A DNA stretch of 64,000 nt from Escherichia coli (lineage in GTDB: Bacteria > Pseudomonadota > Gammaproteobacteria > Enterobacterales > Enterobacteriaceae): assembly GCF_048403405.1 (NCBI RefSeq), contig NZ_CP183129.1; one strand, written 5' to 3'. The position numbers and the translations under genes were made by a program. This document shows, piece by piece, positions 7,362 to 43,923 of the stretch (positions are counted from its first letter, which is position 1; each line of letters starts with the position of its first letter). The notes below the pieces were generated by a model, which did not search any database, was not told the origin of the DNA, and saw nothing but the letters and a program-made list of their open reading frames with translations.

Positions 7362-7400
7362 ATCTTAAGAGTATGCCCTGAGAAAAAAAGGAGTCGCATC

Positions 7401-8186: not shown

Positions 8187-9871
8187 TTGAAGAAGGTTTG
8201 GCTTAACCGTTATCCCGCGGACGTTCCGACGGAGATCAACCCTGACCGTTATCAATCTCTGGTAGATATGTTTGAGCAGTCGGTCGCGCGCTATGCCGAT
8301 CAACCCGCGTTTGTGAATATGGGGGAGGTGATGACCTTCCGCAAACTGGAAGAACGCAGTCGCGCGTTTGCCGCTTATTTGCAACAAGGGTTGGGACTGA
8401 AGAAAGGCGATCGCGTTGCGTTGATGATGCCTAATTTATTGCAATATCCGGTGGCGCTGTTTGGCATTTTGCGTGCCGGGATGATCGTTGTAAACGTTAA
8501 CCCGTTGTATACCCCGCGTGAGCTTGAGCATCAGCTTAACGATAGCGGCGCATCGGCGATTGTTATCGTGTCTAACTTTGCCCACACTCTGGAAAAAGTG
8601 GTTGATAAAACCGCCGTTCAGCACGTAATTCTGACCCGTATGGGCGATCAGCTATCTACGGCAAAAGGCACGGTAGTCAATTTCGTTGTTAAATACATCA
8701 AGCGTCTGGTGCCGAAATACCATCTGCCAGATGCCATTTCATTTCGTAGCGCCCTGCACAACGGCTACCGGATGCAGTACGTCAAACCCGAACTGGTGCC
8801 GGAAGATTTAGCTTTCCTGCAATACACCGGCGGTACCACTGGTGTGGCGAAAGGCGCGATGCTGACTCACCGCAATATGCTGGCGAACCTGGAACAGGTT
8901 AACGCGACCTATGGTCCGCTGTTGCATCCGGGCAAAGAGCTGGTGGTGACGGCGCTGCCGCTGTATCACATTTTTGCCCTGACCATTAACTGCCTGCTGT
9001 TTATCGAACTGGGGGGCAGAACCTGCTTATCACTAATCCGCGCGATATTCCTGGGTTGGTAAAAGAGTTAGCGAAATATCCGTTTACCGCTATCACTGGC
9101 GTTAACACCTTGTTCAATGCGTTGCTGAACAATAAAGAGTTCCAGCAGCTGGATTTCTCCAGTCTGCATCTTTCCGCAGGCGGAGGGATGCCTGTTCAGC
9201 AAGTGGTGGCAGAACGTTGGGTGAAACTGACTGGACAGTATCTGCTGGAAGGTTATGGCCTGACCGAGTGTGCGCCGCTGGTCAGCGTTAACCCGTATGA
9301 TATTGATTATCATAGCGGTAGCATCGGTTTGCCGGTGCCATCGACGGAAGCCAAACTGGTGGATGACGACGACAACGAAGTACCACCGGGTCAACCGGGT
9401 GAGCTTTGTGTCAAAGGGCCGCAGGTGATGCTGGGTTACTGGCAGCGTCCGGATGCTACCGATGAAATCATCAAAAATGGCTGGTTACACACCGGCGACA
9501 TCGCGGTGATGGATGAAGAAGGATTCCTGCGTATTGTCGATCGCAAAAAAGACATGATTCTGGTTTCCGGTTTTAACGTCTATCCCAACGAGATTGAAGA
9601 TGTCGTCATGCAGCATCCTGGCGTACAGGAAGTCGCGGCTGTTGGCGTACCTTCCGGCTCCAGTGGTGAAGCGGTGAAAATCTTCGTAGTGAAAAAAGAT
9701 CCATCGCTTACCGAAGAGTCACTGGTGACTTTTTGCCGCCGTCAGCTCACGGGCTACAAAGTACCGAAGTTGGTGGAGTTTCGTGATGAGTTACCGAAAT
9801 CTAACGTCGGAAAAATTTTGCGACGAGAATTACGTGACGAAGCGCGCGGCAAAGTGGACAATAAAGCCTGA
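8187..9871 (+). pseudogene. fadD: long-chain fatty acid-CoA ligase, interrupted by a -1 frameshift in this sequence
   Basis: TTG at 8187 reads [14 protein letters not shown]…FIELGG then hits a stop at 9060; the next frame continues [23 protein letters not shown]… to 9871; one base missing after the G6 run at 9011-9017; the two parts total 561 codons. Confidence 0.85.
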
Positions 9872-13298: not shown

Positions 13299-14909
13299 TC
13301 AGTTGTCGCCTTTGAATACGGTTCCCGCAGGGAGCACTGGCGTTTTTTCCGGGGCTTCAACCGGTGTCTGCGGGAGATAATGTTCAACTTGATGAGCCGG
13401 AATGTCGGCGTAATCCTGTTTCAGCCAGCGAATAAAGCCACCGACTTTCACCAGTAAAATAACGAGGAAGGGCAGGGCTGTAAGTACCACAGTGGTTTTC
13501 ATGGTTTCCAGCGACGCGCCAGTAAATAAGATAGACAGTGGAATCAGGGTGATAACCACGCACCAGAACAGGCGAAGAGCACGGTCAGGGTCGTCACCTT
13601 CCTTAAGATTTCGCGTACTGGTCGCCGCCATGGTGTAGGCCACCGCATCCATATGCGAGGCAAGGAAAATAATCATCACGCCCAGGTATGCGGCGAGGAA
13701 CAATTTACCGGCTGGCAACGACATCAGAACTTGCTGCACAGCTGTCTCGCCGCCCAGTGTTTCCAGCACCTGTGGGACGTTGATTACGCCATTGATAAAC
13801 TGGTGAATGGCATAGCTTTCCATTACGCCGAAGAAGAACCAGCAACCGACGGTGCTGCCGAGGATCAGTCCCCAGATAACTTCTTTAATCTTACGACCGC
13901 GTGAAACGCGTGTGACAAACATTGCTACGCCAGGGGTGTATGAAATCCACCACAGCCAGTAGAAAACGGTCCAGTTGCGGGGAAATGAACCATCGCCAAG
14001 CGGATCGGTGAATAAGCTCATTTGCAGGAAGTTTTGCGTGGTCAGGCCGATGGCATTGATGATGCTGTTGGTAATAAATTCGGTTGGACCGACAATCAGC
14101 ACCAGTAATGGCAGCAGGAACGCGCCCCAGCCAACCATTTTGCTCAGACGTTGCAAACCGTTGTTGATACCAATCCACGAGCTTAGGCAAAAAATGCCGC
14201 CGGAAAGCAGGATCACAAATGCCTGCACGGTGAAGTTATCGGGTAAACCGGTCAGCGCGGAAAGCCCACGAGTAAAGGTTGCTGCGGTAACAACAAGGGA
14301 AATGGTCAGCGCACCGACAGTGGCGATCAGGAACATCAAATCGACCAGTTTTCCCCACGGGCCTTGCGGGCGAACGCCGGTAATCGCGGCAATAATGCCG
14401 GAAAGGCTCAGACCTTTGTTTTTCCGCACATGAAAGTGATAAGCCATGATTAATGAGGCCAGCGTATAAGTTGCCCAGGCGCTGATGCCCCAGTGGAAGA
14501 AGGAGTAAGGGACGCTAAATTCGAGTGCCTGTTGTGAACGCGGTGCGATATTTAATCCAGGTGTTTGATAATAATAGGCCCATTCAGCACCCCCCCAATA
14601 AAGCGTAGAAGAACCTAAACCGGCACAAATAAACATAAACAGCCAGGAGAGCGTGCTGTATTCCGGTTTTCCTTCTCCAAGACGAATATTGCCGTATTTA
14701 CTGGTGGCTAAATAAATCACCAGTCCCATTGCCAGCAAAACCAATACCTGTACGGCGGAACCTAACGTACGCGTAACAAAAGTGTATATTGCGTTGGCCG
14801 CGTCGGCCGATTGTTGTGGGAAAAGGCTTAATGCAGCTGCGATGAAAAGAATGGCCACCAGGCTGATGCTTATCAGCGGCACATCTTTTTTCTTAACATT
14901 GCTCATCAT
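13299..14909 (-). CDS. yeaV: BCCT-family transporter (carnitine/betaine type)
   Basis: 536-aa ORF with 12 predicted TM segments, aligns along its length with CaiT-like transporters; exact start codon uncertain. Confidence 0.8.
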
Positions 14910-24625: not shown

Positions 24626-25976
24626 TCATGAACGGCTGTTTTTGTTCTGCTTATTGACATATAAACGCTCATCGGAAGCTTTATACGCATCATGTAACGT
24701 ATCGTTTTCTTTCATCGCGTAAATACCGGAAGAGAAGCCGATCTCTTTCTGCGGCGCGATATGTTGCAGACGTTTTTCGATACGTTCAGGCAGTTGTGCT
24801 GCAATTTGCGGCGTCGAATCGACTAGAATGATGCAGAATTCATCGCCACCGAGTCGGATGGCATAATCACTTTTACGAATCGACTGTTTAATCGCCTGAG
24901 CTAATAACGTAATCGCTAAATCCCCCTCCTGATGACCGAGGGTGTCATTTATTTGCTTTAACTTGTCCATGTCAATTGCAATAAACATCACCGAAGAACC
25001 GGATTGCACCAGTTTTTGCAACCGCTGCTCCAGTTCAGGGGTTAAAATTTTGCGATTATACAGTCCTGTCATCGCATCACTAATATTTTCTCGCGACACA
25101 TTTTGGTATAAACGGAAGTGCATCCGCACCATATTCAGCAAAATTAACGCCGTCAAAATCCAGAACAGAACGCTTTTCCACGAAGACGTGATAAAGTAAA
25201 GAATATCAATGGATAACGAGACACGAATGCCGCCCGGTAAGTCATGGACGTAACTGACATACTGGAACAGATTATCTTCGCTCTGGTTGATGATAATGTC
25301 GCGCCCCGAATCGGTATCGGTTAGCGTGACATTGAGAAAACGCCAGAGGAGAGGGCGGTCATGAGTGTAAAAGATATTCCGCAGATTGTTTTTGTTAATA
25401 TCCAGCAGCACAATCCCTTTTAGCTGCCCTGCGACATATACCGGCGTCAGCAAACTCATCACGTTCTGTTTAGTACGCTGATCCTGGTAAATGCTCGATA
25501 AAACGGTACGCCCGGTAAATACCTTTTCAATATCTTTGCGATCGATGCCAATACTTCCTGACTGCAGGAAAGACCAGTTATTCATCGCAAAGTACTCAAC
25601 ATTAACCGGCTCATAAAAATAGACATAGCGGTCATTGAGATCGAGATAATAGTGAAATTTCTCGTCGGCCATCCCAAGACCTGAACCGTAATCATCCTGG
25701 TGGCGGTTGCCTTCCACTGCCTGATCAAAAGCGGGTAATAGTGCTGCAGCTTCCACAATTGTGTCGCAGTCAGTGGATGCGGTTTGTAGTGTGCCGCGTA
25801 AGCCAGGGTATTTATGGGCAGTCAGGTTTAAGCCATGGGTATTATTTGCAGACTCAAAAGCCTCGCAGATGGTGCGCCGCTGTTCTGGCGACAAGTTCAA
25901 AAATAAGGAAGGAAGATGTCAGCACAATGACACTTGCGGCGATAAAATGCCGGAGCATTCTATGGTGCAATTTCAT
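24626..25976 (-). pseudogene. dgcJ: diguanylate cyclase DgcJ, N-terminal segment out of frame with the body
   Basis: ATG at 25976 encodes the TM N-terminus MKLHHRMLRHFIAASVIVLTSSFLIFELV…, which stops at 25854; the 424-aa body (…RxxD I-site RKSD, GGDEF RLGGDEFCIIL) is in the +1 frame from 25900. Confidence 0.75.
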
Positions 25977-43165: not shown

Positions 43166-43923
43166 GTGGCGGCAAAAGACAGGATTCAGGCAATTAAGCA
43201 AATGGTTGCCAACGATAAAAAGGTGACAGTCTCAAATTTGAGTGGGATTTTTCAGGTAACCGAAGAAACCATTCGCCGCGATCTCGAGAAGCTGGAAGAT
43301 GAAGGCTTTTTGACCAGAACCTATGGTGGTGCTGTTTTAAATACAGCGATGTTGACGGAGAATATCCATTTTTATAAGCGCGCTTCATCGTTTTATGAAG
43401 AGAAGCAGCTTATTGCACGCAAGGCACTACCCTTTATCGACAATAAAACCACTATGGCAGCCGATTCCAGTAGTACCGTTATGGAATTGCTCAAATTGTT
43501 GCAGGACCGTAGTGACCTGACGTTGCTAACTAACTCGGCGGAAGCGATTCATGTTCTGGCTCAATCAGAAATTAAAGTCGTTTCAACGGGGGGGAACTAA
43601 ACAAAAATACACTTTCCCTGCAAGGAAGAATTACTAAAGAGATCATCAGCCGCTACCATGTCGATATCATGGTAATGAGTTGTAAAGGTCTTGATATTAA
43701 CAGCGGCGCGCTGGACTCTAACGAAGCGGAAGCTGAAATCAAAAAGACAATGATCCGTCAGGCGACAGAGGTTGCGTTATTGGTTGATCACTCTAAGTTT
43801 GATCGCAAAGCTTTTGTCCAGTTAGCTGACTTTAGTCATATTAATTACATAATAACTGATAAATCACCGGGTGCAGAGTGGATAGCATTTTGCAAAGACA
43901 ATAATATCCAGCTGGTGTGGTAA
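43166..43923 (+). pseudogene. ydjF: DeoR-family transcriptional regulator, interrupted by a frameshift in this sequence
   Basis: GTG at 43166 encodes the HTH N-terminus and stops after …VVSTGGN at 43600; the next frame continues ELNKNTLSLQGRITKEIISRYHVDIMVMSCKG… to 43923; break lies in the G7 run 43588-43594; the two parts total 252 codons. Confidence 0.85.

Follow-up and report, generated by a model that had tools for sequence, protein, structure and literature searches.

A one-base contraction in a G run that splits fadD in an Escherichia coli chromosome: probable homopolymer-length assembly artefact

In the E. coli chromosome considered here, the coding sequence of fadD is divided between two reading frames by a single missing base. 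Has this organism lost its long-chain acyl-CoA synthetase, or has the sequence been deposited one base short? We addressed the question in a 64-kb stretch (hereafter, the window) of the chromosome, which is complete at 5,471,390 bp (GenBank proteins XPL98227 to XPL98273). The segment of interest has the gene order yoaA-tsaB-yeaY-fadD-rnd. Its split gene is identified as fadD both by orthologous position (yeaY-fadD-rnd, the order seen in annotated genomes) and by sequence identity.

On the plus strand, fadD codons 1–277 extend from a TTG start to Gly 277 (8187..9017). They are identical to those of the intact allele and correspond to positions 1–281 of the NCBIfam profile NF006523. The last codons before the junction, TTT ATC GAA CTG GGG GGC (9000–9017), encode F272, I273, E274, L275, G276 and G277. 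From there the frame runs through an out-of-frame tail (9018..9062) of 14 aberrant codons that ends with TAA at 9060–9062. Codons 278–561 and the stop codon are found in a different frame of the same strand (9017..9871), which opens with CAG at 9017, continues for 284 codons to the normal stop at 9869–9871, and covers profile positions 278–560. The longest open reading frame that could be started within this downstream part begins at TTG 9056 and would encode 271 residues. Together the two parts make 277 + 284 = 561 codons, exactly the length of intact FadD (WP_000758422.1; 8187..9872 in strain 4621). The initial annotation, made from the sequence alone, had described a frame reading ...FIELGG that shifts at a G6 run and stops at 9060, with the rest of FadD in another frame and 561 codons in sum; on both points it was right.

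To what extent could either part still count as FadD? The yardstick was the equivalog NF006523, a 561-position profile with a cut-off of 884 bits. The strain 4621 allele, which is intact, reaches 1172.4 bits, whereas in the window the N-terminal and C-terminal parts score 593.7 and 561.8 bits, respectively. As neither fragment attains the cut-off, no single product of the locus qualifies as FadD.

Alignment with an intact fadD, one of the checks proposed in the initial annotation, defines the lesion precisely. Every base of the window gene is the same as in the strain 4621 allele, except for one G missing from a run of seven. Strain 4621 reads CTG GGG GGG CAG at this site and the nearest relatives read CTGGGGGGGCAG, that is G7, where the window has G6 (9011..9016, plus strand; alignment to strains 4621, MS 69-1 and CFSAN061763). 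The one-base loss had been recognised from the start; its placement after the C (GGGGGGC-AGAACC), with GGGGGGCC expected in an intact gene, does not agree with the relatives. What has been lost is a G within the G7 run and not a C beside a G6 run. It follows that the pattern to look for in intact reads is GGGGGGGC rather than GGGGGGCC. Other lineages have GGGTGGG or AGGGGGG at the same tract. Judging from these alleles, the uninterrupted G7 is a lineage-specific synonymous variant.

We next consider whether the rest of the window carries comparable changes. The chromosome belongs to a tight clade with strains 4621, MS 69-1 and CFSAN061763, in which the fadD tract is G7. Over its first 25 kb the window matches the closest complete genomes (4621, MS 69-1, TUM1226 and OX030728), differing in length by one base. 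When all 64 kb were compared base by base with strain 4621, eight substitutions, two 1-bp deletions and one 140-bp deletion were found. The only 1-bp indels are the fadD change from G7 to G6 and a change from G8 to G7 in ydjF, a gene for a DeoR-family regulator (43166–43600). The ydjF run lies at 43588..43594 on the plus strand and has eight Gs in the relatives. In the window, its contraction makes the frame read ...VSTGGN and enter a TAA directly afterwards (43598–43600), cutting YdjF to 144 residues. A second homopolymer frameshift in ydjF, also claimed in the initial annotation, is therefore present.

Within these 64 kb, strain 4621 has only two G/C runs of at least 7 bases, those of fadD and ydjF, and the window is one G short in both. 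At the same time, all 20 A/T runs of at least 7 bases and all seven G/C runs of 6 are unchanged. If two indels had fallen at random among the 22 long runs, the probability of striking exactly the fadD and ydjF runs would be 1/231. The earlier suggestion that the ydjF frameshift makes sequencing error a serious possibility thus gains support, since the sole two long G/C runs of the window are affected alike.

A further irregularity concerns a C run in yeaV (14590..14596 on the plus strand; the gene is on the minus strand). An A to C change at 14590 converts AAC6, found in all relatives, into AC7. It is a shift of the run boundary, which results in YeaV V107G. Four other assemblies also have an irregular version of this run: it reads C5 in L012 and L029, and CCCCTC in L004 and L030, in which the annotation gives yeaV an internal stop here.

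The change at 14590 is one of six private substitutions of the window (14590, 19463, 25664, 35642, 41721 and 61378). All six are nonsynonymous (YeaV V107G, DgcP H327R, DgcJ E151D, MsrB Q18K, YdjH D210E and YdjZ V207I); that none is synonymous has to be seen against the small numbers. Five of the variants (YeaV V107G, DgcP H327R, MsrB Q18K, YdjH D210E and YdjZ V207I) are singletons among about 15 billion proteins, all of them encoded by this one chromosome. Three of the four transversions in this set are A:T to C:G. Dam, Dcm and EcoKI motifs were absent from all six sites. We considered nanopore errors at methylation motifs as a source of these substitutions and rejected them, both for lack of a motif and because noisy contigs of this lineage are almost free of substitution errors. 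Apart from that at 14590, the private substitutions probably represent recent real variation, and they have no bearing on the G runs.

Could a mismatch-repair mutator have produced both frameshifts? This explanation was rejected, as transversions make up four of the six private substitutions, the A/T runs have not changed, and private substitutions (5–6 per 64 kb) are about as dense as in relatives (3 in 30 kb in L001 and 5 in 19 kb in L005). In a strain that is no mutator, it would be an improbable coincidence for two real frameshifts to arise independently in G runs 35 kb apart and for every other run to be spared.

The 140-bp deletion is of a different kind. It affects dgcJ, a diguanylate cyclase gene on the minus strand (about 24626–25976), and has its junction at 25885–25893, between two copies of the 9-bp direct repeat CTGGCGACA. 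The frame shifts after about 30 codons, leaving a 40-residue product. The 140 bp are kept in the best-matching complete genomes among the matches listed and in all four relatives compared directly. The loss looks like a real replication-slippage deletion, and a read error is unlikely here.

How common are the two contractions among complete genomes? We searched 5,426 complete RefSeq E. coli genomes for exact matches to a 67-mer carrying the fadD G7 and to the corresponding G6 66-mer. The former occurs in 136 genomes and the latter in a single one, B1.H1.18. For the ydjF tract, 946 genomes have G8 and again only one, B1.H1.39, has G7. Both exceptions come from the same hospital-wastewater project. 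An error of a sequencing pipeline would be expected to cluster in this way, and independent natural mutations would not. A literature search on this project, on the run accessions and on fadD pseudogenes in E. coli returned nothing usable.

B1.H1.18 itself (NZ_CP146564.1, L004 above) deserves some attention. Over 20.8 kb its sequence is 100% identical to that of OZ039641.1 (L030), a chromosome deposited separately, and the identity includes both the fadD G6 and the internal stop in the C6 run of yeaV. In view of this full identity, we rejected the idea that B1.H1.18 is simply noisy. The pair may belong to a successful clone whose lesions are real, or to a lineage that has been heavily sequenced with long reads and shows reproducible errors. 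The 313-residue fragment matching the two (P0136) occurs in about 215 contigs, nearly all of them short. The fadD G6 frameshift is also found in CP026777.1 and CP026878.1 (L025 and L026), Shigella-like genomes of 4.39 Mb rich in IS1, where it is set amid IS1 insertions and a disrupted yeaV.

Public contigs offer a broader view. The exact 313-residue N-terminal fragment of the window is present in 13 Logan contigs and in none of the NCBI records. Contigs with the G6 fragment lie 0 to 105 SNPs from strain 4621 and represent different SNP backgrounds. Ten of them, originating from at least five run series, carry a fragment identical to that of the window. Beyond G6, these ten contigs have 14 indels, every one a deletion and 13 located in homopolymers, whereas private substitutions are nearly lacking. 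Such a deletion-rich and substitution-poor spectrum is in itself a signature of error-prone reads.

As a control for contig size we used a natural allele, YnjH V50I (P0106). The control is found on contigs of at least 50 kb in 78% of data blocks, compared with 5–14% for the truncated products of the contractions (Fisher p 2e-6 to 8e-37). The exact 144-residue YdjF product occurs in about 45 data blocks, mostly on short contigs; among them are an NCTC record (STF06075.1) and B1.H1.39. Of particular relevance is an ENA contig of the window's own lineage (L018). Over 20 kb its only indel relative to strain 4621 is the ydjF change from G8 to G7, and every A/T run is correct, the same pattern as in the window, which counts in favor of an artefact. 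This contig has a noisy twin (L019), with which it has a private SNP in common.

An A run at 7383–7389, in the space separating tsaB from yeaY and immediately 5′ of the yeaY ribosome-binding site, also varies among assemblies. The window and its clade have A7, other assemblies and lineages have A6 or A5, and every raw contig with the window-identical G6 fragment has A6. We rejected A6 as pure error, because at least one lineage (L004, L030, L032 and L033) carries it naturally and the length varies between A5, A6 and A7. The run is thus partly a natural polymorphism and partly subject to read error, an unreliable marker that is informative only for contigs nearly identical to strain 4621.

Taken together, these observations suggest that the fadD G6 is a homopolymer-length assembly artefact, a reading to which we assign a probability of roughly 70%. 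In the proposed scenario, the assembly would derive from long reads and its consensus would call long G runs one base short; the cause most likely lies in the sequencing or consensus step. The contraction would then be absent from the organism, and the cell would have intact 561-residue FadD and grow on long-chain fatty acids. The change is a single base inside a long homopolymer of a gene that is otherwise unaltered. The only two G/C runs of at least 7 bases in 64 kb are both one G short while the A/T runs are intact, and the same contractions turn up repeatedly in unrelated error-prone assemblies but hardly ever in complete genomes. Moreover, under-calling of long G runs would explain together the contractions in fadD and ydjF and the boundary shift at 14590. 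Real loss and homopolymer error, the two possibilities named at the outset, were the right ones to weigh, and the evidence leans to error. Published benchmarks (PMC8812927, PMC11170131) rank homopolymer-length errors first among the errors that remain in bacterial assemblies built from long reads only.

Several observations argue against an artefact. Published error profiles of nanopore-only E. coli assemblies consist mainly of A/T deletions and of G-to-A or C-to-T substitutions (PMC11170131). A/T deletions dominate there, whereas in the window only G/C runs are affected. The A7 at 7383–7389 is correct in the window but is A6 in the raw G6-fragment contigs. Errors of this type are rare in complete RefSeq genomes (1/137 for fadD and 1/947 for ydjF). 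Under-calling cannot produce expansions, yet the fadD tract is G8 in L032 (JABBJS010000024.1) and G9 in L033 (Logan ERR10177342), both out of frame and both close relatives of L004 and L030. Some carriers of a −1 change at the tract (L040, L043 and L044) are contigs of 90–180 kb in which the neighboring genes are all intact. The strain also has private lesions that look real, namely the dgcJ deletion and five singleton nonsynonymous SNPs. Finally, the identity of B1.H1.18 and OZ039641.1 over 20.8 kb including G6 calls for either clonal inheritance or a reproducible error.

The most serious alternative is that the fadD G6 arose by real slipped-strand loss of one G during replication and represents a recent null allele, the G7 run itself having been created earlier, when GGT changed synonymously to GGG in this lineage. 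We regard this as unlikely, though well worth keeping in mind. G runs are classical slippage hotspots. Many divergent backgrounds show independent −1 events at the fadD tract (GGGTGGG to GGGTGG, G7 to G6 and AG6 to AG5), and the expansions, the carriers on long contigs and the G6 of the IS1-rich genomes CP026777 and CP026878 fit the same explanation. So does dgcJ, inactivated in the same strain by a direct-repeat deletion that is unlikely to be a read error. On the other hand, a real mutation in fadD would need a companion in the G run of ydjF, independent of it and within 35 kb, in a genome where nothing points to a mismatch-repair mutator and all A/T runs are unaffected. Apart from the missing base, each half of the gene matches the intact allele exactly, and the contracted allele is nearly absent from complete genomes and concentrated in fragmentary assemblies.

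If the frameshift were real, the product would consist of 277 native and 14 aberrant residues; it would lack the C-terminal domain entirely, along with the second half of the adenylation domain. Exogenous long-chain fatty acids would not be activated, and no growth on oleate is predicted.

A broader version of slippage, in which fadD of G7 lineages is a true hotspot repeatedly switched off (G6, G8, G9) and G6 is perhaps slightly leaky, seems to us improbable. Within one lineage the tract does occur as G6, G8 and G9, mostly in fragmentary assemblies; the complete genomes of the window's haplotype divide 136 G7 to 1 G6. Less probable still is that the tract serves as a contingency-like on/off locus, or that G6 is leaky through −1 ribosomal or transcriptional slippage. 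A −1 slip on the in-frame heptamer G_GGG_GGC (9011–9017), which conforms to the slippery pattern X_XXY_YYZ in the zero frame, would restore exactly L-G-G-Q, and public assemblies include tracts of 6, 7, 8 and 9 Gs. However, the 83 nt after the heptamer contain no stimulatory RNA fold (z = +0.83; 157 of 200 shuffles fold at least as well), and the two-frame arrangement is not conserved, as close relatives have a plain uninterrupted reading frame. Nor is the tract conserved as a repeat across the species, being interrupted as GGGTGGG or AGGGGGG in many lineages, and variants of off-length are rare and mostly confined to poor assemblies. Programmed or leaky expression of FadD is thus at best remotely possible.

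What would the preferred reading, an artefact, mean for the use of this genome? The deposited chromosome would under-call long G runs, and pseudogenes with a frameshift at such a run, among them fadD and ydjF and probably more elsewhere in the genome, should not be taken for gene loss. Were the mutation real after all, it would be a recent null allele of a routine kind, in a catabolic gene already well understood, and mechanistically nothing new. In either case there is no novelty here: the locus is a homopolymer consensus error or an ordinary recent pseudogene.

How does this locus compare with known systems? Phase-variable contingency loci based on poly-G are known in Campylobacter, Neisseria and Haemophilus. 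The fadD tract resembles them in that a change in the length of a coding poly-G run, from 6 to 9 among assemblies, shifts the frame. It differs from them in being short, interrupted in many lineages and constant at 136 to 1 in the complete genomes of its haplotype; the assemblies compared provide no evidence of reversible switching. The heptamer located exactly at the fadD frame junction likewise recalls −1 frameshifting of the A_AAA_AAG type in dnaX. Unlike the dnaX type, the fadD site is without a downstream stimulator and its arrangement is not conserved, and a G-rich heptamer is not known to be an efficient −1 frameshift site. A real frameshift would entail the same loss of long-chain acyl-CoA synthetase as in fadD null mutants of E. 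coli K-12, which do not grow on oleate; the difference is that the lesion of the window may not exist in the organism. The locus is like known homopolymer assembly errors in three ways: a gene without other defects is split by a one-base loss in a long run, several long runs of that base have changed within a single assembly, and the same change turns up again in unrelated assemblies.
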